A stretch of 63,443 nt of DNA, the filler included, from Craspedostauros australis (lineage: Eukaryota), in NCBI GenBank assembly GCA_030167865.1. It is 12 parts of 12 records of this genome, joined end to end, with 100 filler letters (N's around TTAATTAATTAA, not from the genome) between each part and the next. Parts side by side here need not be neighbours in the genome. Positions count along the whole stretch, not along the records: positions 18,759 to 33,209 come from JALAGF010006223.1; 11 more parts are not named here. One strand, given 5' to 3'. Made by a program: the position numbers and the translations under genes. Every line of letters starts with the position of its first letter. The first letter of the stretch is position 1. Shown here piece after piece: positions 5,174-42,100 of this stretch. Below the pieces are notes generated by a model. It had not been told where the DNA came from. It ran no database searches and saw nothing but the letters and a program-made list of their open reading frames with translations.

Positions 5174-5297
5174 CGCAACCACCACAACAACGAGCGGAAA
5201 TTCCAGTCGTGGATACATCGAAGAATCACACAAGTCTAATAACACTAGGAAGAGTCTAATTATTGAAGAACTACTATTGCCTACTAGTCAGTGTTTA

Positions 5298-5825
5298 TCA
5301 TTTGTTGGTCATCGATTGTGCTTGCTTGCGCTTGATTGCGAGATGATTCTTGAACTTATGCAGCTTGACTTGCTGGTAGATGTGCTGCTTGAACTGTTTT
5401 GCACCGAAATTAGCATACTCTGGCCGACTTGCCTGGAATTCAGATGGTGTCATGTGGAGGTGCTTGTTCATTTTGACATCAAAGGAAAGGAGATCTTTTG
5501 CAGGGGACAAGTGCATCACTGGTCTGCCTTGGTTGTTGCGCCGTTTCTCAGGGTGAATGTGGCGATCGTGGTCCAATGCGCGCTCTTCGCGCGCAGAGCG
5601 TTCTCGCTGTTTGTCGAGTCGTGCGCGGAACGTTTTGAAGTATTTCTCGAAGACGGCCTGCGTCATCCCGTCCACTTTGAATTGCGGAAACATGCTGTAG
5701 TACTCCCATGCTGTAGCAGGTGCCAAATCCTCGGCATGGAATACACCTCCAACGTCAAAGTCATCTTTCATCATTGCGCTGGCTGCGCTGTTGCGCCACT
5801 TGAACTTTGGTGCATTTGCCGCCAT
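5298..5825 (-). CDS. Conserved hypothetical protein with an internally duplicated helical motif (resembles a diatom multi-copy family)
   Basis: 175 aa; two similar halves (KWRNSAASAMMKDD...P...YYSMFPQF and HLSPAKDLLSFD...TPSEFQASRPEYANF...FKQHIYQ) joined by ALDHDRHIHP. Confidence 0.6.
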   Translation of the reverse strand: MAANAPKFKWRNSAASAMMKDDFDVGGVFHAEDLAPATAWEYYSMFPQFKVDGMTQAVFEKYFKTFRARLDKQRERSAREERALDHDRHIHPEKRRNNQGRPVMHLSPAKDLLSFDVKMNKHLHMTPSEFQASRPEYANFGAKQFKQHIYQQVKLHKFKNHLAIKRKQAQSMTNK

Positions 5826-6486
5826 TGTTTCAATTGTGTGCCAACGATGATGATGGCAGCTTCTCTACTACTCAGCGTACACATCAAGAACGGCACGAGA
5901 AATGAACACACTCATACACCCCGCCTTATATCTACTAGTACTGTCATTGCTTTCGCACGCTGGGCTGGTTGCTGCAGTTGTTGTTCGTTGAAATAGTTCC
6001 CACAGGCCTCTTCTGCTACACAAATCAGCATAGAACGGCCGGCTGGCGATGTTGTGACCGTTTTTACCGAGTCGTGTTTGAATTTCGTGCCGGACAGGCT
6101 ACAAACTAGAGGCTCACATGGTGCAACGTAGTGCGCACAACGTTCGAAAATGCAAGAGCTCTTCGCAAGCATCGGCACAGAATCAACCGCAATGTGTGCA
6201 ACAAAGCAAGGCATCTATCTACATACTATGCATCTGATTGTAGCATCATTGCTCTCTCCAGACTTTGCGGCTGCAGACAATTTGTATGTTGGCGCGCATC
6301 CATGCTTGAGACCGCGCTGATCATTCGTACGCCGCCAAACATCTGAAAGAGAAACAGACCGAGCTGCTCAATGGAGTAAGACAATGNNNNNNNNNNNNNN
6401 NNNNNNNNNNNNNNNNNNNNNNNNNNNNNNTTAATTAATTAANNNNNNNNNNNNNNNNNNNNNNNNNNNNNNNNNNNNNNNNNNNN

Positions 6487-9930: not shown

Positions 9931-10030
9931 NNNNNNNNNNNNNNNNNNNNNNNNNNNNNNNNNNNNNNNNNNNNTTAATTAATTAANNNNNNNNNNNNNN
10001 NNNNNNNNNNNNNNNNNNNNNNNNNNNNNN

Positions 10031-10514
10031 CTGGGACATGGAGCTCTTCTGCGATAGCGAATATGCAGGAGACAAGAACACGAGAATCAGCGTAGGAGGG
10101 TTCATCCTATATCTATGCAAGGTACCAATCCTTTGGCGATCCAAAGCACAGAAGGCCATCACACTCAGCTCATCCGAAGCAGAATACGTTGTGCTTTCCA
10201 AAGCGGCAAAGGAAATCTTTTTCGTCGTGCAGCTACTCGAAAGTGTGGACGTCCCAGTGAAGACACCGATCAAGGTCCGCGTGGACAACATCGGGGCGAT
10301 CTTCATCGCCAAGAACCCATCGACATCCCAACAATCGCGACACATCGACGTGCGCCATCACTACGTGAGGAACATGGTAATCAACAAAACCATCGAAATC
10401 ATTTTCGTCAAATCCGAGCANAACACAAGCNACGGNTTCACCAAGAACATCAAGGCCGACTTACAACGCGAACATGAGAAGTCGTACCTTGACACATCGA
10501 GAACATTCGAATGA
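10031..10514 (+). mobile_element. Copia family A RNase H C-terminus
   Basis: FCDSEYAGD, ITLSSSEAEYV, VDNIGAIF, SRHIDVRHHYVR motifs; stop at 10514. Confidence 0.95.
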
Positions 10515-10534
10515 CCGAATGCACACAGGAAGGG

Positions 10535-11396
10535 TGTCGAGTTGTACATGTGAGTATACGTCAAGATGTACGTGTATATGTGCATCGTTCACCCGTTATT
10601 CTCTCATACACACTTGGACGGTATAANNNNNNNNNNNNNNNNNNNNNNNNNNNNNNNNNNNNNNNNNNNNNNNNNNNNNNNNNNNNNNNNNNNNNNNNNN
10701 NNNNNNNNNNNNNNNNNNNNNNNNNNNNNNNNNNNNNNNNNNNNNNNNNNNNNNNNNNNNNNNNNNNNNNNNNNNNNNNNNNNNNNNNNNNNNNNNNNNN
10801 NNNNNNNNNNNNNNNNNNNNNNNNNNNNNNNNNNNNNNNNNNNNNNNNNNNNNNNNNNNNNNNNNNNNNNNNNNNNNNNNNNNNNNNNNNNNNNNNNGAC
10901 CACTGCATCACCAATGGAACGTGACATCTGGAGAGCAGAAGGACACCTACTGACGTCGACAGGATGTCAACATGTCACCACATCGACAGCTGTCTCCAAG
11001 TCAGAGCAGGAGGCGAAGATACGATGACCCATGANNNNNNNNNNNNNNNNNNNNNNNNNNNNNNNNNNNNNNNNNNNNNNNNNNNNNNNNNNNNNNNNNN
11101 NNNNNNNNNNNNGAATGCGGAGCACGCATCGAACACGGAGTATCGTGTAGCACGAGCACACGATGGTGAGAGAGAGAGAGAGAGAATACAGAGAGGAGCG
11201 AGAGAGCATCTCGCGTACCGACTCATAGTCGAAGATTGAATCTACGAAACAGATTGAAGCGCCGAGAGCATCGGGCAAGAGAACAGGCGTACACCGAGAG
11301 CATCTGAGTAGCCAACTAATGAAATAGCAAACGAACGACTATCAACCACCACCATCTTCCACGATCGTAGGTTACCGTGAGCGGAACTTGCCAACA
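10535..11396 (+). repeat. Family A 3' LTR preceded by polypurine tract AGGAAGGG (10527-10534)
   Basis: Begins TGTCGAG directly after the PPT, ends GCCAACA; homologous to 28875-29659, 39165-39934 and 49546-50928(-). Confidence 0.92.
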
Positions 11397-14300
11397 CTAC
11401 GGCGTCTCCAGCCGATACTACGAGAAAGACGCGGAGTGCGATATGCACGGAATCGGCCAGGGCAACGGCGCAGGCCCAGCGATCTGGGCCGTCATCAGCT
11501 CGGTGATGTTCAAGGCCATGACCCGACTGGGGCACACGTCGTCGCTGGTCACTCCGTCAGGAGAGTATATACCCATCCTGGGGTCGGCCTTTGTCGACGA
11601 CACGGACTTAATCAGAATCCAACGACCGCAGCGAAATGACGCCGATGTCTCCAGCTTCCGAAGGACGGTTCAAGACTGGAGCCGCCTCCTCCAAGTCACA
11701 GGAGGAGCTCTGGTGCCGGAAAAATCAGCCTGGTGGGCCACGCAGCCAGAGTTCGTCAAGGACAAATGGGTGTGGAGCGATAGCGAGACTTCGGTAACCA
11801 TCAGCATTGACGATGGCCGAGGAGGAAGCGCCGTGATCCCGAGCAGGACAATGTCACAACCAGTGTTCACACTGGGGGTGTTTATCTCGTTCGATGGGAA
11901 CAACGAGGAACAAATTCAGGTCTTGCGGAAGAAAGCAGAAGACTTCGGCGGAAGGATGCGTATGGCGCAGATCTCCACGGACGACGCGCGGTCGGCTCTC
12001 ACCCTGCGGTTCATGAAATCCATCGAGTACGTCATGCCAGTTGTCCAGCTCACTCCACTTCAGTGGCGATACATCATGGCCCCAGCCCTGCTGGCAGCCC
12101 TGCCAAAAATGGGATGCTCGTGGACTCTGCCCCGGGACTTAGTGTATGGCACGAAATCGCTCGGCGGTTTGGGCATAGTACACCCCGTGAACTTCCAGCT
12201 GATGGCGCAAATCCAGCTGGCTTTCGACGAGGTACACCGAGGTACTCAGACGGGCAAGATGATTATCTGCTCTATACAAGCACTCAAGGAAGAGCTGGGG
12301 ATAGGAGGATCCCTGTTCCAACACTCGTACTCCCGAATGGGGCATTGTGCAACCAGGTGCTGGGTGTCCGGTCTGTGGAACCAGCTTCAGGGAACTGGCA
12401 TCGAAGTGTGCGAATTCACTTCGTCTTGGAAACCCCAACGGCGAGGCGATGCTTTCCTCATGGATCTATGGGTCCAACAGCATGTGAAGGGAGCACAGTT
12501 CTATCACCTGAACATGGTCCGCCACAAGATGGGGGTGATGCGGATGTCGGATATCGTTTCCGCGGATGGCACCAGAATAATGCCTGAAGCGCACGATGGC
12601 ACTCTGACTTCTGAAATGCCACAGCGATGGGCACGACAACCCGAACGGCTCCCCAGTGGCTGGTGGAAGGAATGGCAACAATGGTGCAAGTCGATGTGCT
12701 TTCGAGGCCTGCTTTTGAACAAGCCCCTTGGAAGGTGGCAGAGAGAGGACGGGACATGGCGTTGGTGGAAGGCACCATACCAGGACGACATTTTCGATCT
12801 GGACGCTGATCCAGTCCTTCGCTACCGACCTCTCCCACGACGGCGCACCCGTTGCCAGCAGTACTCTCTGGCCACGCCTGCTACCGACGTCCCAGCCGGC
12901 CTCAAACGAGTCTCTGTTGTTTACACTGAACAGGGCATCGAATGGGACGGTCATATCGGACTGACATGCCCTCCTGAGGAGCCAGCTCCTGCATACGAGC
13001 CCATCGAAAACATGCGAGGGACCATCCCCTTACAGGAGGTGGCACTGGCCGCGAACAGGGGCAATTTGGTGCTGGTGAGCGACGGTTCGTTCAAGGACCA
13101 GCGGGGCACGTCGGCATCGATCGCATACGATGTCCAGACCAGGGAGTATGTCTACTGCCAGACGTTCGTCCCAGGGCCGCCAGAGGTCCAGAGCGCCTAC
13201 AGAAGCGAGCTCGCCGGAATCTGGGCGTCCCTTGCAATGGTGGCAGAGCTCCCCGGACTACAGGACGACTGTACCATCACCATAGCTCTTGACGGTAAGC
13301 AGGCGCTCCTGCAAGCTCAAGAGGACTACCTGCGGCCACACCAGCGGCACTGGGACATCCTCACAGAGATCCAACAGCTCCGACGTGGCATCAAAGCCAC
13401 CCTGAAGTGGGAATGGGTGAAAGGCCATCAGGACGACACAGGCAAGAAACTAACGCTGTTGGAACGGCTCAACGTGGAGGCGGACGCAAAAGCAAAACAG
13501 TTCTGGTCCGACACGGGCTCCAGACCACACGTGAAAACCTGGGTGACCGCCACAGGTCGATGGAGGCTCCGCCTACGTGACGCCGACCATTCTCACGTGG
13601 ATCCCGAGGCAATGAACGAGCTCCTTCAGACGGCATCAGCAATGAAGTACTGGTCCACCAAATTTCAGTGGAATCAGAACCAGGTTCGCCAGATCGATTG
13701 GCGAGTGTACAAGATGGCCCAGCAGTCCAAGCTGAACCGTGGGACTGCTCGTTTCATCTCCAAGTGGGCTTCCGGCTTTGTGGTGGTCAACCACAAACTC
13801 CATCAGACAGGTCAACTACAGACGCCGAAGTGCAAGTTCTGCAACAGCGACGAGACCACTCAACATGTTCTACGGTGCCCGGAGCATCATGAAGCATGGA
13901 CCGAGGCTACTTCCGGCCTCATTGATCGCATGGTGACGATTGGAACAGCCCCACGGCTGGTCCAACGCATGCGAGTTGGCCTCGTGAAATGGAGACGGAA
14001 CACTCGGTCCACCGATGTGCAAAGTGAAATTGGGTGGTACCCTCTCATGCTAGGGTTTCTCCATGAGGACTGGGCTCTCCATCAGGCCCGCTGGATGACA
14101 ACGCATGAGTGCCGGTACCCAGACGCCAACTCTTGGGCTAGGGAGGTCGTGCGGTGGATCTGGAAAATCCCCTGGGAAATATGGTTGGCATGGAATGCGA
14201 AAGTGCACGACGAAGAACAGCATCCTACGGTGCAGGACTTGCGGCGCAAGGTTCGCCGAATGATGCAGGGTGCAAGTCAGGATATGAACGAAGCAGAGAT

Positions 14301-18758: not shown

Positions 18759-19250
18759 ATACTGTACAGTGCGATGCGAACTGCACACTCCCGGCCCGCG
18801 TAGTGCTGGGGAATATCAGCATCTGCACATATCGATCATTTCCGTACAGATCTAGGACCCCAAACTCCAGGATCGTACTCTTTGGAATGTGCTTGGAGTG
18901 GAAAAAGCGTTGGATTGGTATGTGATCGAAATTTTCTGCGTACATGTGCTCAGAACATCGTATAGCTGGATGTGCAACGATCAGTGCTGCATGATATTTA
19001 CATTTGCAGATTTCGATCCCTTCCTGGCGGATCCATGACTTCAAACTCCATGTTCGGATTCTATGTGGCACGCTTGGAGTGGTGTGGTTGGTCGGATCTC
19101 TCAAAACAGCCTGTGGAATGCATAGATACTTGGAGTAGAGTACAGCATCATGTGTGCCGCACAGTATCACAAGATCCATAGATTTGGATACCAGCACTTC
19201 TTCAAGAAGGATCCAGATCCTCCCAAGCCACCCCCGTGCCCATTGAAGCG
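18759..19250. repeat. Degenerate ~180-195 bp tandem repeat (same family as 33310-33885)
   Basis: GCTTGGAGT anchors at 18891 and 19072; shared blocks ATATCAGCATC, CGTACTCTT, GGATCTCT.AAAAC.GCCTGTG.AATGCA. Confidence 0.6.
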
Positions 19251-20138
19251 CCGTCGCAATGATGGGATTGGTAGAATTTTAAATGTTGGGTCTTTCATAT
19301 GAAGGTTTGGGTAAAGCTCTGCACACCGCACACAGTCACTGTGCGGTATCACATGATGTGATCGCGTATAATCTGCAACACCTTCTAGCTGGATCCAGTC
19401 ACTTGCANNNNNNNNNNNNNNNNNNNGGAATGCCCTCGATGCGCCGATCTTGTTAGAATGTAGTATTTTATCCTTTTCAATGAAGGTTTGGTCAGAATAC
19501 GATCCACAACGCAACGAGGTGGAGCAAACAGGTGGATTATGCACATACCAACAAACTAAAGTAGTAATTATCCCTTAATTAGATGTTATATATTCGTATG
19601 GACTNNNNNNNNNNNNNNNNNNNNNNNNNNNNNNNNNNNNNNNNNNNNNNNNNNCACCGCACACAGTCACTGTGCGGTATCACATGATGTGATCGCGTAT
19701 AATCTGCAACACCTTCTAGCTGGATCCAGTCACTTGCACGCTGGATTTATACCCATGGGAATGCCCTCGATGCGCCGATCTTGTTAGAATGTAGTATTTT
19801 ATCCTTTTCAATGAAGGTTTGGTCAGAATACGATCCACAACGCAANNNNNNNNNNNNNNNNNNNNNNNNNNNNNNNNNNNNNNNNNNNNNNNNNNNNNNN
19901 NNNNNNNNNNNNNNNNNNNNNNNNNNNNNNNNNNNNNNNNNNNNNNNNNNNNNNNNNNNNNNNNNNNNNNNNNNNNNNNNNNNNGTACTTTTCCTGTGTG
20001 GTGTAGTTAGTCTATATTTATATACTAACCTTCCAAGTCGATGGGAAACCTCTGTGTCCATGAGATGTCGTATGGACATCTGGACATTTTGAGCCACTAA
20101 ATAGTGTCAAAACAGGCTGGTTGGTGGAAATCGGCACT

Positions 20139-20753
20139 TCAAAAGGGCTGGTTCGTGAATTTCCTCCTATTTTTGGTAGAGAGCTGAGTCATGGTGACAT
20201 GCGCCTTGTCTCTACCTACGTGATGCAACCGGATCAGGTCCATGTCGCTCTTGACCACAGTGTAATTGCTTTCCTCCTGTAGACGGGCACGCATTGCATT
20301 AGTGCACTGGCCCCACACAACGGAGTATATCTTCTGCATGCCATCTTCAAGCTTCTCCTTTCTGTCCTCATACTTGCTGTATTGTTTCTTCCATTTTTCC
20401 TTTTGGGTGGTGGTGGCAGTTGCCGCATAGTCAGCTGGCTCTGCGATGATTGGTGCTTTGAGAGTTTCGACAGCGTGTGCCACTCTGGGTCCGTACATGG
20501 TGCCAGCAAAGACTTGGATGGCATCGATGGTCTGTTTGAAGTCTTCCACTTGTTTGGTTTGGGAGGTCACACAGTCAAAGATCATCCCTTTGAGCTTGGG
20601 GCATGCGCCCTCGAACTTGGGGGCCTTGGCGAATGGGGAGCGCCCCTTGTTGTTGTTGTAGTTGTAGTTGTAGTTGTAGTTGTAGTTGTAGTTGTTGTTG
20701 CCGCCTTCACCTTTTGGCTTGATCGGCTTGGTCTTGATGTTGTCGCTCATCAT
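20139..20753 (-). pseudogene. Copia family B (CoDi-like) gag N-terminus, truncated near 20230
   Basis: KFEGACPKLKGMIFDC...YSVVWGQCTNAMRARL, typical of diatom copia Gag; starts 30 bp after the LTR; contains a (GTTGTA)n microsatellite encoding NY repeats. Confidence 0.85.
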
Positions 20754-20783
20754 TACAATGAAGCAGCAATCCAGTTTAAAATA

Positions 20784-21071
20784 TGTTGAGACAATGACTC
20801 CTACACCGGCCTCTACCTGGCGATGCACCAATGGGCAAACCAGATGAGGAGCGATGAGATTGTTGTTGTGGTGTAATCAGATATTTTAAACTGGATTTAT
20901 GGCTGCTTGTTGTTGATGTCCAGTTTGTTGTTGTTTTTCTTGTGTTTGCTTGCTTGGTGCTGGTGGTGGCTGCCAGCCATTGAGTTGCAACGATGAATGA
21001 TGTCATTGGCATTTCCTGGTTTCTTTGGTTTCGTGCCATCTGTCGTCACAATTTGGGCATCTGCTCCAACA
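20784..21071 (-). repeat. Family B 5' LTR (288 bp)
   Basis: TGTTG...CAACA termini; about 97% identical to 28466-28754; followed on the minus strand by gag. Confidence 0.95.
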
Positions 21072-22025
21072 GGGGCACTGACTCAAGCATGCGAACAAAG
21101 GTCTGGCATCCATGACATCTTCGAAAATGGGAGCTCACAGGTGTTCGCACTTTTCAATCACACGCAGATGGGCGCGACCAAAAGAGAGTTCCGTCTCATG
21201 GCTCCTGCTTCGATGGTGTAAAAATCTGCGTCGCAGAGTACCGATGGTGGCGAAGGAGGTCGCACTCTCATTGGGAATTGCTTCTCCGTCTTGGTGTCAA
21301 CGATTGCCAGAGATTGTCACTTCCGATGTGGCACCGAAGCATCGAACAGAATCGAACACCATCAGTCAGATTCCAAGATAACCACGGAGAGTACTTCAAC
21401 CCATGCAAGCGCAACGTGCCAAGTTCACGACGACGGAACTTCATCGGGTGCTTCTGGAAGCTGCAAGCCATCATTTGTTCTGCAACAACTCAACACAGCA
21501 TTACGAGGACACGCTCGAGCTGGATGACATCTGCTGCGATCTTCTGCGTGTCCAAACTCCAGGGTGCGACCACGTCTCGAAAGTACCATGCAACGTGATG
21601 CGAAGGTGACTCTTTCGGAGAGCTTTACTTCTGATCCATCGTCGGGAAGCTGTCGAAGAGCAGTGGAGCAGTTGTCAGAAGTCTTTGGGCGACCCGCCCA
21701 GTGATGAGACTAGTACTTCATCGAACGCTTCTGGAAACCTCGCTGCACCCCAAGATTCTGCATCAACGCAGCACTGTGTTGCAAACTCGGAGCATGTGCG
21801 ATCTGATGCGATCTTGTGCGTGTTTGAATTGGCGTGCGACCATGTCTTGAAGGTGTACTGGAATGCAACAGGAGTGCAGCAACGTGCTCCACACATTCTC
21901 CAACCATGCTCTCACAAATCCCAAACTCAAACAAGTTGTGGAGCTGGGAAAGCCACAAGCTCACATCCTCAAGCAAACATAATTCTCATTCAGCTCTTGA
22001 CAAACAATTCGAAAACGTAAGTACG

Positions 22026-23987
22026 ATGCCGCCAAAAAAGAATGAACAGTTCATGAGTCTCAGCGGTGGTGGAGTCGTTCTCGAGGAGATCGAAGAGGAG
22101 GAAGAGGATGCAAGTGATGATGAGGAGGATATCCGACAACAGATCAGCGACGAGAAGAAGAAGGGGGCCAAAGCAAGAGTGGACCTCGATGAAAGCATCA
22201 AGGCAGCCCAAAAGCTGATGGAGGAATGTAAGTCAGACACAACCAACAATCTACCTACTGAACTACTTTCTCAATGCAACACTGAGATCAGCAATTGCAG
22301 TGAACAACTCGACAATGCCACCAAATCCCGCGAGGAACTTGCCGCAAAGTTGCGTCGATGCCGACTGAAGCGTCGCATGAGAGAATCTAGTATCAAGGAC
22401 GTGCTGGGCAAACTCGATGCTGTGGAGAACGAAATTGATCTCGTGTTCATCATGGACGCTACTGGTTCAATGGGGCCATACATCGACGGTGCCAAGCAGA
22501 CCATCCGCAAGATTGTCGAGAAGATCAAGGCTGATGGAAAGGGGAAGGATCTACGGTTGGGGTTCGTGGCCTACCGAGAGATTTACAATGGATCTGATCG
22601 ATATCAAGTACTTGATTTCGTGGATGAAGTCAGTGTCTTCGAACGCTTCCTGGAGGGAGTCAAGCCCATTGGCAACTACGACATTGCAGAAGACATGGCA
22701 GTTGGCATCCAAAAGGCCAATGGGCTCTCCTGGATGCACCCCACCAGAGTCGCCTTCATTGTTGGCGATTGTGCATGTCATGGAACCGAATTCCACGATT
22801 ACAGTAAGTCTGACGACAACTACCCGACCGGCACTCCAGGCATCAACATCGTCTCGGAGCTATCCAAACTCAGGACCAATCCATCGGGTGGAACCATGAC
22901 CGTCTTCTTTGGTCGCATCACCAGCCTAACGGACAAGATGATTGAGCGGTTTGCGTCCGTCCACAACATTGATCTCGAGGTTGTGGACTTCTCTTCTCCC
23001 GAAATGGTTGAGAAAGTCGTGGTCAAGAGCGTCCGCCACTCTGTCTTCAACTCGGTGTCGTTGATCGACTCTCAGAGCAAGTCAGTGGAGTACGAAGCAG
23101 ACAGAGGGAAGATGAAGAAGGCCAAGATGAAACCATACACAATCTCCAAAGAATTTCCAACGCACCTTGGATGGAAAGCAACAGTGCCTGTCAACGTGTA
23201 CTGCAACACCCGCAGCATCTCCGTCCAGTCTTTGCAAACGCCTCTCTCGGTCAACAAGTTGGCCGAAACCTACACTTCTCGGTCCGCTTTCGTGAAACGC
23301 GCCAACCTCGAGCTCCAGCTCCAACTGGCGAAATCCCCGTTTGCTGAGGGGTCATGCCGCATTGCATTCCATGCAAGGCTGGCGCGTTGCGTTGCCGAAC
23401 TCAACCTCAACAAGAACGCCATGGTGCTCAAGACCAACAAGCACCATGGGCCAGGAATCAACGATAGACAACGATACTTCCAGCAGATGGAGGTATCATC
23501 CATCGCGTGCTTCCTTGCCAACGAATACAACAAGTCAGCCCTCCGTCCTTCGCATTGTGCCAAGATCAAGGTTCTGCAAGCGTGCGTGGTGGAGGAGGTC
23601 AGCGACGAAAATGAAGCAGACGGAAACCGTTTCTACTGCGGTGAAGACGTGCTGCCAACCACCGGAACGCCATTCACCAAGTACTGCAGCAACACGGGAG
23701 CCTGGAATCCCGATCACATCGATGAGTCGCTCCTTCGCTTCGTGGAGTTCTCGTACGTCTTCTCCAAGAAGTACTTGATCGTGGCGGATCTTCAAGGTGT
23801 CAAGGCCAATGGCAAGTACTACTTGACCGACCCTGCGATCTTGTGCACGGACATGAGACGCTTCGGCTGCACCAATCTGTGCACACCAGGAATCAAGCGT
23901 CACTTGGCATCAGTTCGAGACAAGCTCAAGATGTTCAAGAAGAAAGCTGGAAGCTCGGTCTCATGTGGCTGTTGGAGGCAAGGGTAA
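22026..23987 (+). CDS. Coiled-coil + vWA + alpha-kinase (eEF2K/MHCK family, VwkA-like architecture)
   Basis: vWA: IDLVFIMDATGSM, LRLGFVAYR, AFIVGDCACHG; alpha-kinase: PFAEGSCRIAF, FTKYCSNTG, IVADLQGV, YLTDPAI, FGCTNL. First ATG taken at 22026. Confidence 0.92.
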   Translation: MPPKKNEQFMSLSGGGVVLEEIEEEEEDASDDEEDIRQQISDEKKKGAKARVDLDESIKAAQKLMEECKSDTTNNLPTELLSQCNTEISNCSEQLDNATKSREELAAKLRRCRLKRRMRESSIKDVLGKLDAVENEIDLVFIMDATGSMGPYIDGAKQTIRKIVEKIKADGKGKDLRLGFVAYREIYNGSDRYQVLDFVDEVSVFERFLEGVKPIGNYDIAEDMAVGIQKANGLSWMHPTRVAFIVGDCACHGTEFHDYSKSDDNYPTGTPGINIVSELSKLRTNPSGGTMTVFFGRITSLTDKMIERFASVHNIDLEVVDFSSPEMVEKVVVKSVRHSVFNSVSLIDSQSKSVEYEADRGKMKKAKMKPYTISKEFPTHLGWKATVPVNVYCNTRSISVQSLQTPLSVNKLAETYTSRSAFVKRANLELQLQLAKSPFAEGSCRIAFHARLARCVAELNLNKNAMVLKTNKHHGPGINDRQRYFQQMEVSSIACFLANEYNKSALRPSHCAKIKVLQACVVEEVSDENEADGNRFYCGEDVLPTTGTPFTKYCSNTGAWNPDHIDESLLRFVEFSYVFSKKYLIVADLQGVKANGKYYLTDPAILCTDMRRFGCTNLCTPGIKRHLASVRDKLKMFKKKAGSSVSCGCWRQG

Positions 23988-24524
23988 AGCCTACAGGGCA
24001 CATCTCTGATGCAATCCTTGAGTCGTTGTCAAGATTTTCAATTCGAAAGAGTGAGGCACTTCTGTCTGTTCCAAGTGCAGAAGAGAAGGGCAGGCGCATG
24101 GTGCTCATCATACTTGTACAGCATCTAACGGCATCCGACGAAGCTGCTATCTCCATTCACAACACAAGAGAACACGTTGGTGGCACACCCCTTATGACAT
24201 CCAACACTTCACCACATACATTACATGACTATTATACATGACGACATGATGTCAATACACATGATGGAAAAGGCGATGTCTCTTAGTTCGCCTTCCATGC
24301 CCACCATAACGATTATACACACCGTACACATACTTAGTACACCGATAATCAACCAGCCAATCAACGAAATAGCTTCTATTCAACAGAGTACATGGAGAGC
24401 AACTACGATTGAGTCAAACGAACCAGCCTTGCTTGCACAAATGCGCATGTAGGTGTGGTCATCCATCCACTCTACTATAGTGACACGCGCAACGTCGCGA
24501 TCCACCGTCGTCCAACACCCTGCC

Positions 24525-25382
24525 TCACAGCTCGTCGTAGTCCATGGATTTCATGAACAGCGTCACCCTCTCTTGCAGCGCATGCATGGACGGGCTCGTT
24601 AATCGCTCCACGAACATCCCATCTGCACTGAGCAGATACATCGTCACCCGATCCAGATTGAGGTTCGATTGCACATGCTGCATTGTTCCATCCGCCCGCG
24701 TTAGAACGGATGCCGTTCCCGATGTTGGATTGACGTCGAGCAGGTACCGAATCATGGCGTTTCTCGTGGCATCGTTGATCTCTTGCAGCACGTGCACATG
24801 TGGTGGATCGTGCAGCACGAGGTGGATACCGCCCTCCACTCCGACGTCGACGGGCAGAAGGACGATCTCGAGGCTCGGTCGAAAGCTGGAATGCAGATGC
24901 TCCAACAGCTCGTAGTAGTATGCCGCCATGCCGGGGATGAGGGGAACGATCGCGACAATGACGACGTATCCTTCCAGATCCTCCATCTGCATGAGTTTTG
25001 AGTTTGTGGGACGTTGCAGTCGGACCGACGGCAGGTCGTAGAAGGCGGATGCATCGGAGGCCTTGCCATTCATGCGCGGCTGTTCCAATTGTTGCGTGCA
25101 TGTCGCTGCGCATTCCACGAAGATGTTGGCGAAGATGTCCGACCAGCACACATCGATGATGTCCGCACAATCGTCACGTGTGTCCTTGTCGAATGTGCCG
25201 AACGGCGAAGAGCGGATGGAGTCCACGAACTTCTGCAGTTCGGACTTGGGCTTTGTTGGTAATGTTGGTGGTGCCTCGTTGGATGCGCCCTTCGCTTCAT
25301 CCGTTGTCGGAGCGCAGGATACCAACGACACCAGGTGCATCAGTGCGCAGAAAAGGATGATGGTATGCAGCGAAGAGCACAT
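24525..25382 (-). CDS. Secretory protein: signal peptide, partial ShK-like Cys motif, glutathione-peroxidase-like thioredoxin fold without catalytic Cys, C-terminal YDEL
   Basis: MCSSLHTIILFCALMHLVSLVSC signal; DDC...C...CAATC; SAFYDL...LEGYVVIVAIV...YYELLEHL...LEIVLLP and YLLSADG..VER follow the GPx pattern. Confidence 0.75.
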   Translation of the reverse strand: MCSSLHTIILFCALMHLVSLVSCAPTTDEAKGASNEAPPTLPTKPKSELQKFVDSIRSSPFGTFDKDTRDDCADIIDVCWSDIFANIFVECAATCTQQLEQPRMNGKASDASAFYDLPSVRLQRPTNSKLMQMEDLEGYVVIVAIVPLIPGMAAYYYELLEHLHSSFRPSLEIVLLPVDVGVEGGIHLVLHDPPHVHVLQEINDATRNAMIRYLLDVNPTSGTASVLTRADGTMQHVQSNLNLDRVTMYLLSADGMFVERLTSPSMHALQERVTLFMKSMDYDEL

Positions 25383-26264
25383 CGCGTCAAAGTGGAGTAC
25401 TGGTACTATACTGCGATGTTTGTGTATGGCACGAGTGTTGGGGAGAGAATTGATGTTGGCGTGTTGGTGTGGACAACTCCAGAGAGTTGGTTGGTTGTGC
25501 GCCTTTGGAGGTCTCGCTGTGTTTCGCACTGTCACTCCTGCTTCCGTCCATGACTGCTGCCGAGGCCCATGCCCATGATGGCTACGGGCTATTCCGATTG
25601 CTTCCTCCGTGAATGGTCGCTGTTGTGAATGGTCGCCATTGAAGATCGCTGTTGATGTCATCCTCCCTTCCTTGTTTGTGACAATCCGAAAGTCACCAAA
25701 ACAGAGAGGACAACAGGTCGAAATGACTCTGTGCAACACGTTCAGCATCTCTTTGTTCTTCACGGTTGTGTTGCCGTTGGTTGTCATGGTTGGCAGGCTC
25801 GTTTCTCGCGTCACGTTCCTTCTTCAGACACGATTGACCATCGAAATGAATTGCCAAATAAATACAATTAGCGTCGGAGAGTTCGGGGTTTGAAATTTGA
25901 ATTTGCTTTTTGGGACAAGATCGTTACAACACATCTCTGGCAACAGGAAAACAGACATCATCTCAATTCTCTCGCACATCCACCACCACCATTGCCATCG
26001 CCGCCACTGCCACCACCACCGCTCGACAACAACAAGAACAATGAAAACAACGCCAAGAACAACACGAGCAGCCCTGTGTGGAGCATCACTCTCACCACCT
26101 TCGCCGCCGCAACCATACCTCATAGTCAACGAATCTGGAGCACCAGCTGTACCCATACCCAATCACTTCGCAAGGCTGCATCATCTTTCCGCGACACCAA
26201 AGCACTCCGTTCCCCGACTCTTCTCTGCGCTAACCATCTCTCCGTCACTTTCCACTCTCCGTCA

Positions 26265-27784
26265 ATGGTAACCATGGTCCAACGAATTGCCAAGCGCCAA
26301 TCCAACTTGGACTCCATCTCGGAGACCAAGCAACTCATCACGAACGATGATGCGATGAAGAATGTCATGACATCAGATGCCGTCCCGAAGATCTCACCAA
26401 CGGCGACCGATACCGCAGGCAACGGAGGCTTCATCATCACGCCATCCAGTTCTACATCCAGCCCCAACTCGAGCGACAGCGACGACGACACGGGTGGCCA
26501 TGATGCAACGGTGACACGAGCGCGCAGATCACTGTTCGTCCCCGTTCGAAAGGCCGTCCCAAGCTCGGCGAAGGAGGACGAAGCAGCTGCATCCAGGAAG
26601 CCCCGCCAACACCAAAGGGAGCCAAGACCGAAGCCCAGACTCCAGGTTCCTCCGTCATCACACCAGACCGCAGAAGTAAGCGCAAGCTGTGGCTCGATCC
26701 GGACGACGATGATGCCAGCGCAGACGCCACGCAGCCCGCACCGAAGCGCCGTCTGCTGTTCGGATGCATGGCCAAGTCGACCTACTGCCAACCAAATGTC
26801 AAGAGCGTCTACTCCATCGTCAAGAAGCTGACGGGTGCCATCGGTGGCAACGGATACTCTGGGCCCATCTACGGTGAGCTCACCATGGCATCCATGCAAA
26901 AAATGATCAATCACATGATGGAGTACGCCGAGCTCGACTCCTCCAGCCGTTTCCTCGACGTCGGCAGCGGCATCGGCAAGCCCAACCTGCACGTCGCGCA
27001 GTATCCCGGAGTCGAATTCAGCTGCGGTGCGGAACTGGAACACGTGCGCTGGAATTTGGGCATGGTCTGCCTCAAGGCTATCCTGAATCGCGCCATGGAT
27101 CAGCGTGACGATCCGGATTTCGACCGATTGACCGACGAAGAGATCGTCAAGGGCAACACCACATTCCTACATCGCAACATCATGGAGGCCAATTCCTTCG
27201 ATCTCTTCACGCACGTGTACATGTTCAGCATTGGAAAGTCGACGTGTGCGCAGCTTTTGTGGGTTGATTATGTGTGTGATCTGCATGTGGCATGGTAGTG
27301 TCACACTCACTCACCCACTCACTCACTCGACGCATCATCCATAACAACAAAACAAACAACAATACAAATAGGCTTCCCACCGGACCTATGGGATCACCTT
27401 TCGAACATGTGGAACACGAGCTCCGCCAAGTACCTCGTCTGCTACTTGAATCCACGCGATCTCATCGAAACCTACGACTTCGACGTCGAGATGGTGTCCC
27501 GCATGCCAACTTCCATGCATGGCTCGAAGGAGGGGCATCTGGGATACGTCTACAAGGGCGTCCATGCGAGGGAAGCAGGCAACAAATCCCACGGCCGTCG
27601 ACGTGCCAACGCAAACAGCAACAGTGGCAACCGACGAGTCAAGTGCGACCCCATCTTCCAAGAGGCCTACGACCTGGTCTGCGATGGTTTGGAGCCTTTG
27701 CACAAGGCAGTGGCACTGCAAACCAACTCGACCATGAACTCGGGCCGCAGGACTCGTTTGCGCGGAATGAAGCTGACGCGATGA
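26265..27784 (+). CDS. DOT1: DOT1-like histone H3K79 methyltransferase, two exons (intron 27234-27371), with an apparent frameshift near 26601 and a GA splice donor; possibly a pseudogene
   Basis: IYGELT, FLDVGSGIGKP (SAM motif I), GAELEHVR, THVYMFSIG|FPP; exon 2 continues in frame after AG at 27371. Confidence 0.8.
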
Positions 27785-28465
27785 ACGCGATTGATCCGGG
27801 CGCTCATTTGGGAGAGATGAGAGAGAGGAGAAATGCACCCATTGCAGTGTAGGTGCACGAGCATGTCACCAGGCCGCGCCGTGCGTAAGTGTTGGACGAT
27901 GTCGCGATGACAGTGGGTGTGACGACGGCAGCAATCATGGCTGTGATCTGTGAAGGATAGTGCAATAGAACCGCAAAAGGGAATCATATGTACATCAGTG
28001 CAAGGTGCACCATAACACACACAGCAACACAGCAGGCTGCAGCATGACGACACATGGGACGTAGCAAGCGGCATCGGCCACAATGCGGAGACTGCTACGC
28101 TGCAAACCTAACTCGCTTTCTGCTCTCGCACTGTAAGATGGCATGTTGTTTGTATGAGTAGTAGTATGCAATCAATTCGAGCGACACTGGATTGAAGAGA
28201 GAGAGAGAGAGAACTTCGACTTGATTCTCTTGTCTTCCCTTCCGAACGTGTTGGCTCTCCCGGGTGAGTATGGCCGCCTGTGCCGTTCCATTTTTCGCGC
28301 ATCACACGCATTCGGACGATCCAGCCATACCCAACCACAAAATACCTCCTCGCACGACGTCCACCAACCGCCGGCCCTGGATTGAGACGACCTCTCTGAG
28401 GTCTCCTCGTATCTCCGCTTGTGCAAACACCAATGCCTGGAGTGGGATTCAGGGTTGATTGGGGC

Positions 28466-28874
28466 TGTTGAGACCATGACTCCTACACCGTCCTCTACCC
28501 GGCAATGAACCGATGGGCAAACCAGATGAGGAGCGATGAGATTGTTGTTGTGGTGTAATCAGATATTTTAAACTGGATTTATGGCTGCTTGTTGTTGATG
28601 TCCAGTTTGTTGTTGTTTTTCTTGTGTTTGCTTGCTTGGTGCTGGTGGTGGCTGCCAGCCGTTGAGTTGCAACGATGAATGATGTCATTGGCATTTCCTG
28701 GTTTCTTTGGTTTCGTGCCATCTGTCGTCACAAATTTGGGCATCTGCTCCAACACACTCCTTCGGTCCAAGCAGAGCTTGCTTGTATGTCTATGTCTTAC
28801 CTTTGCTGGGACCGCTGATTTTTCGGTTGAGGATGATGTCGTGGAACTTGCGGAACCTTGTCCCCTGCAGTGGC
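28466..28874 (-). mobile_element. Family B 3' end: 3' LTR (28466-28754), PPT GAAGGAGTG and 120 bp of internal sequence, interrupted by Copia A
   Basis: LTR matches 20784-21071; purine tract abuts TGTTGG on the minus strand. Confidence 0.9.
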
Positions 28875-31800
28875 TGCCGAGATGTACATGTGAGTATATG
28901 TCAAGATGTACGTGTATATGTGCATCGTTCACCCGCTATTCTCTCATACGTACTTGGACGGTATAACTACACTCGTGTAGATAGTATGTTGTGATTCGTC
29001 AGAATTACAGTGGAAATGGAACACACGAAAAGGAGCAAGATTTCTGGAGGAAATTTGCAATCGACGATTTCTGAGAGAATTGGAAGATCGTCCGTNNNNN
29101 NNNNNNNNNNNNNNNNNNNNNNNNNNNNNNNNNNNNNNNNNNNNNNNNNNNNNNNNNNNNNNNNNNNNNNNNNNNNNNNNNNNNNNNNNNNNNNNNNNNN
29201 NNNNNNNNNNNNNNNNNNNNNNNNNNNNNNNNNNNNNNNNNNNNNNNNNNNNNNNNNNNNNNGTCAGAGCAGGAGGCGAAGATCCGATGACCGAAGGGCA
29301 TCAGCATCATGGATACAGAAGGTGAACTTCAAATGGCGAGTACTCACGGAGTAGGAACCAGTACTGAATGAACGGAGTGTCGAATACGGAGTACGTATCG
29401 AACACGGAGTATCGTGTGCGACGAGCACACGATGTTGAGAGATAGAGAATACGAAGAGTGGCGAGAGAGGATCTCGCGTACCGACTCATAGTCGGAGACT
29501 GAATCTACGAAACAGACAAACGTGCCAAGAGCATCGGGCAAGAGAACGGGCGTACACTGAGAGGATCGGAGTAGCCAAGAAATGAAATAGCAAACAGACG
29601 ACTATCAACCAACACCATCTTCCACGATCGTAGGTTACCGTGAGCGGAATTTGCCAACACGTTTATAAACGATAGATCAGGGCGAGCCCATGGATCGGAT
29701 TGTGCGAGGAAGACGAACATCATTCAAGAGCAGCAGGCTGAATGAGCGAGGAAGAGGAATTGAAAGACATCCCTCTGTCCAACCTGACTATCAAGAGACA
29801 AGAAGGTGCAAGTGAGACTCCACCATGACAAGAGAAGGAAGTAGCAGCGGCTACTGTTCTATCAAGCGCAGACGCAAGCGCAATCGACGAGACCGAAGAG
29901 GAATGGTTTGCGAGACTACATCGCGAGGAGAAGAGCATTCTCAAGGCGAGCAAGCAAGAGGAGACTGGTGTGACGGAGAGCATTCGCACAGCCAAACAGG
30001 GTGAGAAAAGTGAGACACCATCAGGAGGAGAAATTGTGAGGAAAACAATCTCCGCTAAACAACTAGCGAAAATCGAAGAAACAACAACACAGAAACAAAC
30101 GGAAATCAAGGGCGCGAGCGCACCAACAACGAAACAACAAGTCAACATGGCGACATCAGCCAACACGAACAAGCAACACATCAAGGCGCCGATGTTCAGC
30201 AGTGAACATGAAGACTACAGCGCATGGGAGTCCCAAGCGAAGGCATACGCTCATGCACAGAAGACGAGAGACGTGATGTTGGGCAAGACGAAGATCCCAA
30301 CAATGAGCGAGATCGCAGCAGCCACCCAAGAAGACAAGGAGGCACTGGAGGAGACCCACAAGCTGGCATGCGACTGCTTCAGCGATCTGATCCTCATGAT
30401 GGATGCAGAGAAAGGAAAGGGCAAGTAGGCCATCCAATACATCAATCGGTGCATCTCCGACGATTATCCCGAAGGAGATCCACATGCAGCGTGGAACGTT
30501 CTCGCGGAGAAGTTCCGCCCATCTGACGCGGTGACGAAGATCAAACTCAAGTGTCAATTCAACAACAAAAATATGAAGAGAGACACAGACCCTGACATCT
30601 ACATCACGCGACTCGAGGGTCTACGATCGCGTCTCCACGACGTCAAGTACGAGATCACAGACGAGGAAATGATCATGCAAATCCTCAGCACGGTGAGTAG
30701 CGAATACAAAACGCACATCGTGAACTTCCAACATCAACTCACGTTCAATCCGGAACTGGTCACCATCAATGTGATCAGAGGAGTACTCTGCACAGCACAC
30801 GCCACCCATCAAGGAGGAAAGGCGTACATCGACGATTTCCAAGACAGCAACACGAAAAGCAACGACACCGGCCTCACGAGCACTGGTAACTTCAAGGGGA
30901 CCTGCCACAACTGTGGTGTGTATGGTCATAGATCCGCCGATTGCCCAGAACGCGAGAAACCGAACAACAAGAAAAACAACAACAACAATAACAACAACAA
31001 ACTGAACGGAAAGCGCAACAAGGGAAGCAGCTTCAACGGAAAGTGCAACTACTGTGGCATCTTCAGACACCGTGAGGCAGAGTGCCGAAAGAAGAAGTTC
31101 AACGAGAAGAAGAAGGCCGACGAACAGGCCAACACAGCAACACAAGGACACGACAAGAGCGGGCACGAGATGGTACTCTCGGCAAAGGACATGCCGCTCT
31201 GCATATTGGTGTCCGACGACTACATCGAAGACTCCTTCTTCGATAACTTCGAGTGCGTCGGGAGTGACGACGAAGTACAGAACGATGAGATCGTCCTGGA
31301 GTGGCTCAGCGAGGAGCCAATCATCCACGAGGTGGATCCAAGACGCGAAGTGAGCTACGAATGCTGCTTCAACGCAAACAACCTGATCGGTTCATACGGC
31401 GACGGAGCCGAGATGGGCAACGAGGCCATCGATAGCGACATCGAAGAGGCCATGAGTGAAGAGGCCGACGATGAGATCAACGAGAATGACAGAGACCGAG
31501 ACGAGACGAACGGCGGCGCGGCACCGCCTCCTCCAGCGGCGGGGAACAACAGATCGGGCATCTTCGATGAAGATGACAGCGACGAAACCGAAGACCATCC
31601 AGACGGCAGCTTCAACCCAAACAAGCGTGTCGTCTACCCAGGGAATATCGACTTCCCACCGATTGAGAATCCCAACGACTCAAACTACCTCCATCATCAT
31701 GATACCATTCCATACGCAACGGAAACAGCATTGATAATCCAGAAGCAGCTCATCTTCGATGCCGTGATGGAAGCAGGAACGAACCTCTTCCCAGGACACG

Positions 31801-33209
31801 TACAAGGAGTGCTCAGACCGATATGGGTGAACATGATGGGATCCATCCTATCCGAGAACTTCAGATCAATCGAAGAGATTCTCGCCAATTCGGTCGTCAT
31901 CAACCGCATATTGGAAGCGGACAATACGGAGACGATCCCAGAGACGGATCTGCACTACATCCTTGGAGGATGCATGCGTGTGCTCTTACGCGAGCGATCA
32001 CGCGTCCACCCATACGATCCAGCCACAGGATCACATCGAAGCAACACGATTCCATCGGACTACGCGCAACTACCCGACAACATGGATGACGAGGAACGTC
32101 ACAATCCATACAACGAAGATGGAGTTCACGAAGATGAAGAGGAAGACGGCAGCTTCAACGACGAGATAGCTGCGGCAGCTGTGGAGCAACTCCACGAGCT
32201 GAGCACCAGACACAAGGACAAGGTCAACAAGGACACTTGGCTCGCCGACAGTGGAGCTTCGTGTCACATCGTCAATTCAGACGCCGCTCTCTTCAACGTG
32301 CGGCACATCAAGTCATTCGTCCAAGTGGGAGACAGNNNNNNNNNNNNNNNNNNNNNNNNNNNNNNNNNNNNNNNNNNNNNNNNNNNNNNNNNNNNNNNNN
32401 NNNNNNTCATCCGGCTCGATGACGTGAAGTACACACCGAAAATGGCGGTGAACCTTTTCTCCACGAACAAGGCTCTGTACAACGGTTACCAGCTTGGTAG
32501 CAACAGCATTCTGATGGACATCATCAACGGATCCGGAACGAAGATCGTGTTCGATCGAGTCTTCCCCACATCCAACGGATTCATCACGGGAGTGCAGATG
32601 CATCCCATCATGCCAACAGACGACGACAAGGCTTGCACAGCCATCGTCAAGAACCCATCCAAGGAGATCAGCGTGGTGAGCTTGCATCGAATGCTCGGCC
32701 ACGCGCCACTCGAAGCCATGAAGCGAACAGCCGCTCAATACGGATGGAAGATCACTGGCGAGATGCCGGTATGTCGCGACTGCGCGGTCGCGAACGCAAG
32801 AGTAAAGAACATCTCGAAGGCAACGATTCCAAGAGCGACTCGCCGCGGCGAACGCCTCTTCATTGACATTCGTTACACTAAACACATAAGCTTCGGAGAT
32901 AAACGCTACTGGACCCTGATCGTGGACGACTGCACGGATCACTGCTGGAGTTTCTTNNNNNNNNNNNNNNNNNNNNNNNNNNNNNNNNNNNNNNNNNNNN
33001 NNNNNNNNNNNNNNNNNNNNNNNNNNNNNNNNNNNNNNNNNNNNNNNNNNGACAACAGCGGAGAGAACAAATCCACGCAGGATATTCTCATCGATGCAGG
33101 ACTGAACGTGAAATTCGAATTCACAGCATCGAACACGCCGCAACAGAACGGCAGAGTAGAACGCAAGTTCGCGTACCTCTACACCAAGATCCGCTCCATG
33201 CTCAACGGA
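28875..33209 (+). mobile_element. Copia family A 5' half: 5' LTR (28875-29659) and gag-protease-integrase from 29742, with premature stops at 29826 and 30426
   Basis: Two CCHC knuckles (CHNCGVYGHRSADC, CNYCGIFRHREAEC); protease WLADSGASCH; HRMLGH...CRDC; DNSGEN; one reading frame throughout. Confidence 0.95.
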
Positions 33210-39164: not shown

Positions 39165-42100
39165 CTGACGTCGACAGGATGTCATCATGTCACCACGTCG
39201 ACATCTGTCTCCAAGTCAGAGCAGGAGGCGAAGATCCGATGACCCATGGATACTGAAGGTGAACTTCAAATGGTAAGTACTCATGGAGTAGGAACCAGTA
39301 CTGAACGAACGGAGTGTCGAATGCGGAGTACGCATCGAACACGGAGTATCGTGTGGCACGAGCACACGATGTTGAGAGAGAGAGAGAGAGAATACAGAGA
39401 GGAGCGAGAGAGCATCTCGCGCACCGACTCATAGTCGGAGACTGAATCTATGAAACAGATTGAAGCGCCGAGAGCATCGGGCAAGAGAACGGGCGTACAC
39501 CAAGAGGATCGGAGTAGCCAACTAATGAAATAGCAAACGAACGACTATCAACCAACACCATCTTCCACGATCGTAGGTTNNNNNNNNNNNNNNNNNNNNN
39601 NNNNNNNNNNNNNNNNNNNNNNNNNNNNNATGGAGTAGGAACCAGTACTGAATGAACAGAGTGTCGAATGCGGAGTACGCATCGAACATGTAGTATCGCG
39701 TAGCACGAAGCACACGATGCTGAGACAGAGAGGAGCAAGAGAGCATCTCGCGTACCGACTCATAGTCGAACGACCGAATCTACGAAACAGATTGAACCGC
39801 CAAGAGCATCGGGCAAGAGAACAGGTGTACACCGAGAGGGTTGGAGTAACCAAGTAATGAAATAGCAAACGAACGACTATCAACCAACACCACCCTCCAC
39901 AATTGTAGGTTACCAATCACAGAACTTGCCAACACGTTTATAAACGATAGATCAGGGCGAGCCCGCGGATCGGATCGTGCGAGGAAGACGAACATCATTC
40001 AAGAGCAGCAGGCTGAATGAGCGAGGAAGAGGAATTGAAAGACATCCCTCTGTCCCAACCAGCTATCAAGCAAGAAGAAGGTGCAAGTGAGACTCGACTT
40101 CAAGAGCAGAAGGAAGCAGCCGCGGATACTGTCCTATCAGGCGCAGAGGCAAGCGCAATCGACAAGACTGAAGAGGAACGGTCTGCAAGACTACATCGCG
40201 AGGAGGAGAGGATTCTCAAGGTGGTAAAGCAAGAGGAGACTGGTGTGACAGAGAGCATTCGCACAGCCAAACAGGGTGAGAAAAGTGAGACACCATCAGG
40301 AGGAGAATTTGTGAGGAAAGCAATCTCCGCGCAACAACGAGCGAAAATCGAAGAAGTGACAACACAAAAACAAACGGAAATCAAGGGCGCGAGCGCACCA
40401 ACGACGAAATGACAAGACAAGATGGCGACACCAGCCAACATGAACAAGTGACGCATCAAAGCGCCGATTTTCAGCGGTGAACAAGAGGATTATAGCGCAT
40501 GGGAGTCCCAAGCAAAGGCATACGCTCGTACACAGAAGACGAGAGACGTGATGTTGGGCAAGACGAAGATCCCAACAGTGAGTGAGATCGCGGCAGCCAG
40601 CAGAGAAGACAAGGATGCATTAGAGGAAACCTACAAACTGGCAGGTGACTGCTTCAGCGATTTGATCCTCATGATGGATGCAGAGAAAGGTAAGGGCAAG
40701 CAGGCCATCCAATACATCAATCAGTGCATCTCCAATGATTACCCTGAGGGGAATCCACACATGGCATGGAACTTTCTCGCGGAGAAGTTCCGGCCATCCG
40801 ACGCAGCAACGAAAATCAAACTCAAGCGTCAATTCAACAACGAAAGGATGAAGAGAGCCTCAGACCCCGACGTATACATCACGCGACTCGAGATACTACG
40901 CTCACGTCTCCACGATGTTGGATACACAATCACTGATGAGGAAATGATCATGCAAATCCTCAGTACGGTGAGTGTGGAATACAGAACACACGTCGTGAGT
41001 TTCAACCACCAACTCACGTTCAATCCGACAGTGGTCACCATCAACGAGATCAGAGGAGTACTTCGTGAAGCACACGCCACGCATCAAGGCGGAAAGGCAT
41101 ACGTCGACGATTTCCAAGACAGTAACACGAAGAGCAACGACACCGGCTTCACNAGCACCNGTAACTTCAAGGGGACCTGCCACAACTGTGGTGTGTATGG
41201 TCACAGATCCACCGATTGCCCAGAACGCAAGAAATCGAACAACAAGAAAAACAACAACAACAACAAGATGAACGGAAAGCGCAACAACAATCGCAACAAG
41301 GGAAGCGGCTTCAAGGGCAAGTGCAACTACTGTGGCATCTTCGGACACCGCGAGGCGGAGTGCCGAAAGAAGAAGTTCAACGAGAACAAGAAGAACAACG
41401 AACAGGCCAACGCGGCAACGGAAGGACACGACAAGAGCGGACACGAGATGGTACTCTCAGCAAAGGACATGCCGCTCTGCATGTTGGTGTCCGACGACTA
41501 CNNNNNNNNNNNNNNNNNNNNNNNNNNNNNNNNNNNNNNNNNNNNNNNNNNGCCACGCATCAAGGCGGAAAGGCATACGTCGACGATTTCCAAGACAGTA
41601 ACACGAAGAGCAACGACACCGGCTTCACGAGCACCAGTAACTTCAAGGGGACCTGCCACAACTGTGGTGTGTATGGTCACAGATCCACCGATTGCCCAGA
41701 ACGCAAGAAATCGAACAACAAGAAAAACAACAACAACAACAAGATGAACGGAAAGCGCAACAACAATCGCAACAAGGGAAGCGGCTTCAAGGGCAAGTGC
41801 AACTACTGTGGCATCTTCGGACACCGCGAGGCGGAGTGCCGAAAGAAGAAGTTCAACGANNNNNNNNNNNNNNNNNNNNNNNNNNNNNNNNNNNNNNNNN
41901 NNNNNNNNNNNNNNNNNNNNNNNNNNNNNNNNNNNNNNNNNNNNNTGCCGCTCTGCATGTTGGTGTCCGACGACTACATCGAAGACTCCTTCTTCGATAA
42001 CTTCGAATGCGTCGGAAGTGACGACGAAGTGCAGGACGATGAGATCGTCCCGGAGTGGCTCAGCGAGGAGCCCATCATCCACGAGGTGGATCCAAGACAC

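Follow-up and report, generated by a model that had tools for sequence, protein, structure and literature searches.

The closest described counterpart of the locus studied here, a cassette of host genes enclosed by two long terminal repeats (LTRs) of one Copia element in the diatom Craspedostauros australis, is lcr16a/NPIPB9 in hominines. There, the cassette lies between two SVA elements, the target sites of one insertion stand at its inner boundaries, and a block is permuted, an anatomy explained by circularisation followed by re-entry through retroelement recombination; circular-DNA cases at cattle KIT and tilapia vasa are cited in the same work (PMC9132208). Segmental duplications that pass through a circular intermediate are described with the order A–B reversed to B–A and with microhomology only at the new junction (PMC7450558). 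In the diatom Phaeodactylum tricornutum, LTR-mediated recombination has split the target-site copies of PtC25/PtC75 near a duplicated gene family (PMC2806351), and a circle fusing an LTR element with a flanking gene is described in Arabidopsis (PMC10462705). Our literature search, which covered few subscription journals, found no diatom report of reintegrated extrachromosomal circular DNA. To our knowledge, the growth of diatom gene families in repeat-rich DNA is poorly explained.

The window, that is, the whole stretch of 63,443 nucleotides analysed (assembly GCA_030167865.1), is a concatenation of scaffolds separated by 11 artificial spacers, in each of which a 12-base linker is flanked on either side by 44 N. 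Physical linkage holds only within positions 18759–33209 (scaffold G000:C6223), and neighbours outside this range are set aside because of the linkers. The genome assembly is gapped and comprises 65.9 Mb in 6,734 contigs. Genome searches were scored for the best candidates only; domains were sought with Pfam profiles, and nearest proteins in Atlas with a cosine score.

The insertion site and the permuted gene segment

The interval is bounded by two co-oriented LTRs of a family here called B, which differ by seven substitutions and one indel (2.4%), and the inner flanks of both carry GGGGC (Table 1). Sequence is free of N throughout 19985–29095. In these respects direct comparison agrees with the original prediction, which had been made from the sequence alone. 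The left LTR is a 5′ LTR adjoined by the start of gag on the minus strand, and the right LTR is a 3′ LTR with its polypurine tract outside, as had been proposed; this tract is the one that precedes other family-B 3′ LTRs. TG..CA LTRs, a 5-bp target duplication, the purine tract and a Copia-type reverse transcriptase (RT) are all present and place family B in Ty1/Copia. The Pfam search gave RVT_2 matches in the relatives C3668 and C5444, with no integrase match and no profile confirmation of the domain order.

In all seven paralogous contigs that span the insertion site, the end of the interval runs directly into its start and the site is empty. A single GGGGC stands there in three of the seven (Table 1), and the 24-mer predicted for the empty site was found exactly in two (C6429 and C4535). 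In addition, the two LTRs share five private bases absent from ten other close copies. Furthermore, each of the six family-B 3′ LTRs that adjoin a purine tract is matched on some contig by a 5′ partner carrying an identical 5-mer (30 of 33 matches examined). Because the empty sites, the private LTR bases and the 5-mer pairing across the family agree, GGGGC is a true target-site duplication and a chance match is excluded.

The 7.4-kb interval is a circular permutation of a multicopy gene segment. Overlapping paralogues give the ancestral order as block A with the DOT1-like gene, the insertion site, and block B with the kinase and glutathione peroxidase (GPx)-like genes; the window has B and then A. 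The paralogues tile the unit, with C951 covering unit positions 4657–7197, C5840 covering 6153–7388 and then 5–3598, and C6429 covering 7228–7394 and then 1–4662. At 25728–25733 the end of B meets the start of A through 3–6 bp of microhomology. C6429 and C4934 track the window up to this point and then diverge into other sequence, and C5903 and C951 track it from this point onward, with different sequence upstream. The junction is absent from every other scored contig (40 of 43 candidates scored). An internal junction and a permuted gene order had been predicted, and the paralogues bear out both. The interval as a whole has 62 matches in the genome, of which the long ones are 84–94% identical; among the contigs examined, the kinase position 23671 is covered in ten others and the 3′ part of the DOT1-like gene in seven, some of which may be alleles. 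With the site empty in all seven spanning paralogues and the internal junction in place, a single insertion within a permuted segment, by whatever route, is almost certain, as was first proposed.

Two other readings of the segment were considered and rejected. For the junction as a small deletion in an old B-to-A array, shared sequence gives out within about 50 bp of the end of B (in C6429 and C4934) and, ahead of A, within about 120 bp (in C5903 and C951). For the multicopy segment as a transposon with termini of its own, several of the candidate ends turned out to be LTR insertions of later date, and no defined ends were found. Separately, five kinase-segment paralogues (C5636, C1766, C1765, C5073 and C5840) have a common LTR-like insertion in the GPx-like gene at unit position 3598, and C4535 holds a nested family-B solo LTR at unit position 4061–4067. 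Insertions of either kind could date the growth of the family.

Table 1. Features of scaffold G000:C6223, in window coordinates
Feature	Position	Strand	Evidence or remark
Element D, non-coding, long inverted repeats (Mutator-like); one arm, inside the left half of the Copia element	18759–20166	-	99 genome matches
Short piece of the sequence immediately preceding RT; an internal deletion has joined it to gag	20167–20232	-	88–89% to C213, C214, C5444
Family-B gag, truncated 5′ part	20233–20750	-	ATG at 20750; about 170 codons
16-nt sequence at the primer-site position	20768–20783	-	Full complement of 20882–20897 inside the LTR
5′ LTR, family-B Copia	20784–21071 (288 nt)	-	Sequence comparison
Target-site duplication GGGGC, left copy	21072–21076	+	Single copy at empty site in C6429, C4535, C5636
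Block B, ancestrally downstream of the insertion site	21077–25727	+	Paralogue comparison
vWA and alpha-kinase gene, open frame of 653 aa	22026–23987	+	PF02816, E 4.6e-31; paralogues
Secreted-type ShK/GPx-like gene, 285 aa	24525–25382	-	Best Atlas match GSHPx/ShK, cosine 0.95
New junction, end of B to start of A, microhomology TCTGTG	25728–25733	+	Paralogue breakpoints
Block A, ancestrally upstream of the insertion site	25734–28460	+	Paralogue comparison
DOT1-like pseudogene	26274–27784	+	PF08123, E 3.5e-8; broken by a frameshift near 26594 and by loss of the splice donor at 27235
Target-site duplication GGGGC, right copy	28461–28465	+	Inner flank of right LTR
3′ LTR, same family-B insertion	28466–28754 (289 nt)	-	Five bases in common with left LTR, absent from ten other close copies
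Polypurine tract (28755–28768) and last piece of family-B pol	28755–28874	-	88–90% to C2352, C213, C214, C3570
Family-A Copia element inserted in family-B pol	28875–33209	+	5′ LTR 28875–29659, then gag-pol to scaffold end

Decay of the element and nested insertions

The family-B element at this locus is dead, having undergone an internal deletion, the insertion of the Mutator-like element D and three insertions of a second Copia family, A (one in the RT, one at the end of pol and one inside element D), and it retains no intact pol. On the left, nucleotides 20167–20175 are one copy of the 9-bp duplication of element D, and the other arm of D with the identical duplication lies on G000:C1842. 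The scaffold itself begins at the family-A insertion site inside D, the other side of which is on C1842 as well (ATACT/ATATT, four of five bases). C1842 thus continues the left half through two links, the 9-bp duplication and the 4/5 match at the nested family-A site; beyond the arm of D, it contains 600 bp of RT and then stops at a family-A LTR. Element D, about 2.1–2.2 kb in length, is a high-copy, non-coding element whose inverted repeats are long and whose target duplications measure 9 bp, and occurs also on C5505, C5314, C5779 and C6646.

The family-A LTRs at which the two halves end (on C1842 and at 28875) have the same direction and are 91.5% identical over 399 bp, with different flanks. 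A genome search with one of these flanks, GTGGC at the LTR that starts at 28875, gave two matches, both unrelated, and no partner; a search with the other gave 15 matches, none exact, and the two inspected were unrelated. The roughly 1 kb of pol that belongs between the two family-A junctions was not found at the identity level of the copy in 18759–33209. All the unique sequence that was found therefore closes into a cycle, which can be opened only inside high-copy repeats.

The earlier suggestion that the direct LTRs might excise or amplify the cassette as a composite transposon goes too far, since the target-site copies face inward and the element, with its internal deletion and nested insertions, has no intact pol. 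It follows from the loss of pol that the cassette, if it moved, would do so through recombination of its direct repeats by the host. On the reading favoured below, the event is a passive relocation of genes by host repair and recombination, with no active composite transposon.

Elsewhere in the genome, C5365 holds at 9942–11711 an orphan family-B 5′ half, 93% identical, which is cut by a family-A LTR with unmatched flanks. Other family-B copies in this state (L006, L008 and L009) include LTRs with one common upstream flank. Family-B copies without matching target sites point to frequent ectopic recombination.

Routes to the present arrangement

We consider it probable, with moderate confidence, that segment and element formed a ring, and that recombination in a nested high-copy repeat brought this ring back into the genome. 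On this model, the family-B Copia inserted once at GGGGC in one copy of the multicopy segment, then still in the order A–site–B, and decayed through the internal deletion, the Mutator-like insertion and the three family-A insertions; both steps can be read in the assembled sequence. The end of B was joined to the start of A by the 3–6 bp of microhomology seen at the junction, which would have closed block A, the element and block B into a putative ring of an estimated 20 kb or so. This ring would then have opened again within the element, with homologous recombination between nested family A or D and a chromosomal copy as the likeliest means. Opening at that point would place the 5′ LTR at the left end and the 3′ LTR at the right, with the two target-site copies between them, and the inner boundaries do carry the target-site copies of one insertion, a feature expected for re-entry of the lcr16a type. 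The missing 1 kb of pol may have been lost by recombination between the two family-A insertions. Single-copy read depth, which the original prediction had named among its grounds for refutation, is only partly suited to that use, since a ring reopened inside a nested repeat would give single-copy depth and yet derive from one insertion.

Several points weigh against such a ring. Both ends of the locus lead into repeats and stop with their scaffolds, before the outer ends of the family-A elements; the outer chromosomal flanks are unassembled, so that the re-entry point and the outer target-site pair are unseen, and the donor deletion junction was not found in the assembly search; absence from a gapped assembly of 6,734 contigs is weak evidence. 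No single paralogue holds the whole of A and B, and the ancestral order rests on overlapping copies that are 84–96% identical; in C951 and C5903 no kinase follows the DOT1-like gene. The model has to assume several steps, and their order is unreadable. Furthermore, six of the seven LTR substitutions lie within 38 nt of U5 (20793–20830 versus 28475–28512; p about 0.001), most of them private to one LTR, and this clustering is not explained by simple ageing. By way of reference, three other family-B LTR pairs differ at 0/306, 1/281 and 1/281 sites.

A head-to-tail duplication by microhomology without a free ring (A-E-B joined to A-E-B, where E is the element), whose outer halves are collapsed, unassembled or removed through family-A recombination, is the main rival and appears possible but doubtful. 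For the inner target-site copies and the junction its predictions are those of the ring, and it accounts directly for two halves whose terminal family-A insertions are distinct and lie at different points; elsewhere too, as on C5365, family-B elements are cut by family-A LTRs whose flanks have no match. A duplication, however, should also have left outer junctions, the downstream flank in a third copy and the 1-kb pol piece in two; none of these was found. Near-identical outer junctions of a tandem duplicate were absent from the genome searches, and the flank downstream of B was found in only two copies in the assembly. There is no second copy of A or B at 97–100% identity, and the interval contains no ambiguous base. 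The intact head-to-tail duplication offered by the original prediction is thus not favoured, neither outer junction, nor third downstream flank, nor missing pol copy having turned up, although the incompleteness of the assembly weakens this negative.

Persistence of the whole ring, whether in episomal form or as identical units in a collapsed tandem array, is improbable. The closure of the unique sequence into a cycle that opens only in high-copy repeats suits it; the long decay with nested insertions would, on the other hand, imply stable inheritance, and no maintenance function was recognised in the unit.

Insertion of the element into a free 7.4-kb circle, followed by recombination with another chromosomal family-B element, would repeat the lcr16a route exactly and give the same inner anatomy, and an orphan 5′ half does exist on C5365. 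We nevertheless regard this route, also among those first proposed, as highly improbable. The two LTRs have private states in common along their length, no orphan 3′ LTR was found among the 30 of 33 family matches examined, and the C5365 orphan ends in a family-A LTR with a flank that is not family B. Since six of six family-B 3′ LTRs are already paired by their 5-mers, none is free to serve as the outer LTR. The 2.4% difference between the LTRs is a further point against it, and because the element had time for four nested insertions and no spare 3′ LTR was found to close a second family-B copy, insertion into a free circle is not favoured.

An artefact at 25728–25733, either a library or amplification chimera or a misassembly, is still less probable. 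The contigs of run X1, a contig-type run (RNA by guess, share 0.23), do not cover the junction, which leaves room for this explanation. They give depth in 15 of 30 bins over 20930–28610, from bin 21958–22214 to bin 25556–25812 with a peak over the kinase, and diverge from the window at many places, so that they may represent paralogues or another strain. Within the covered bins, no X1 contig joins sequence across 25728–25733 or across the empty site; the uncovered part gives no evidence either way. Against an artefact, the junction is N-free and shares 3–6 bp only, neither side has a near-identical copy to mis-join, and a mis-join at the LTRs alone cannot produce it. The weakest reading, two independent insertions with a chance 5-mer match, of which a genome with many LTRs is expected to contain some, has next to no probability left, being refuted by the empty site, with contiguous flanks in 7/7 spanning paralogues, and by the five private LTR bases in common.

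A wider version of the ring model can be drawn, in which the kinase/GPx/DOT1 segment, present in some ten diverged copies whose flanks differ, spreads in repeated rounds, each time as a ring that re-enters through the abundant family-A LTR elements, and the scaffold is one such round that retains all its marks, possibly even now an amplified or extrachromosomal ring. We hold this to be rather unlikely; if true, it would be a recurring LTR-guided route for gene-family growth in diatoms.

Genes, primer sites and relation to known systems

The cassette had been described as holding three genes. The vWA–alpha-kinase and ShK/GPx-like genes stand as such, and the DOT1-like copy is broken (by a frameshift and a lost splice donor), whereas its paralogues on C951 and C5903 give spliced models of 457 aa. 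In the kinase protein two vWA matches fall below the Pfam cut-off, and a multicopy insert at about 23944–24045, absent in C6429, C4934 and C5636, gives the 3′ end of the gene a new C-terminus and stop. The GPx-like protein has no Pfam match, and seems to lack the catalytic cysteine of the family motif; its neighbours in Atlas point to a probable diatom host. Rough ratios of nonsynonymous to synonymous differences (pN/pS) against paralogues are 0.48–0.67 for the kinase (seven comparisons), 0.27–0.71 for the GPx-like gene (three) and 0.16–0.24 for the DOT1 exon piece (two). Such values suggest that the gene family was under some constraint in the past. Apart from the cassette, a 102-bp tandem repeat occurs at 48135–48944 of the window and on C5365 and C6710; a related frame on C6710 is ankyrin-like by eye.

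The gag start assigned to the left LTR was confirmed, and the adjoining primer-binding site was not: it lacks the initial TGG of a tRNA-type site, and pairs instead with its own LTR. In eight of nine family-B 5′ LTRs, pairing holds at 14–16 of the 16 positions that follow the LTR, the partner stretch lying 114–116 nt from the LTR end, and in the ninth 13 nt pair after a 1-nt shift (the copies compared include L003, L004, L007, L009, L016, L019, L024 and L030). Across copies, changes occur on both sides of the pairing. By comparison, the control flanks of 3′ or solo LTRs pair over 4–7 nt only (10/10). Judged from these sequences, family B looks self-priming. Similarly, in the self-priming elements Tf1/sushi, Tcn1 and the plant Copia TAR lineage, at least 10 nt after the 5′ LTR pair with an LTR-internal stretch, self-priming being itself a prediction for the TAR lineage (PMC6317226); relative to these, the trait is a side feature of the present locus and purely a sequence prediction. 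No such self-pairing was found in fungal GalEa elements (PMC5445492).

The family-A 5′ LTRs are followed (at 29660–29671 and 39935–39946) by a perfect palindrome, CGTTTATAAACG, with no TGG-type primer site. No long complement of it was found in the assembled part of the family-A LTR, which contains an N gap. The palindrome resembles the palindromic primer site of fungal GalEa elements (PMC5445492). A literature search on primer sites of CoDi and other diatom LTR elements returned a single report, on fungi; Additional file 1 of PMC2806351 may list such sites or similar loci.

Few circle-mediated duplications are resolved to the base, and fewer still with the target site of a retroelement as a mark of their history (PMC9132208). 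The present case supplies the empty site, the closing junction and the nested insertions, and does so outside animals. Only a single locus is concerned, with no new molecular machine, and its anatomy was already published for lcr16a in apes. Even so, it suggests that circles and LTR recombination may move host genes in diatoms, and it shows that target sites facing inward can serve to recognise events of this kind where an assembly is fragmented.

Like family B, PtC25/PtC75 of P. tricornutum is a diatom Copia element with target-site copies separated by recombination; its target site is split between two chromosomes, and the part of that report drawn on here describes no permuted cassette with inward target sites (PMC2806351). 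The circular-intermediate duplications of PMC7450558 share with the present scaffold the reversed block order and a junction with microhomology only (3–6 bp here). They differ in that those duplications are large and human, that both donor and acceptor have been mapped and that homology is lacking at the point of integration, whereas a direct donor copy of 18759–33209 is not in the assembly. The comparison with lcr16a is the closest. There, a non-LTR element (SVA) is involved, each of the two flanking copies is complete and a chimera reciprocal to the other, and the outer target site has been identified (PMC9132208), whereas the present locus involves a Copia LTR element with shared private LTR states, has unassembled outer flanks and would have re-entered in a nested repeat. 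Despite these differences, both have the same cassette anatomy, with the target-site copies on the inside and one block moved to the other end (PMC9132208).

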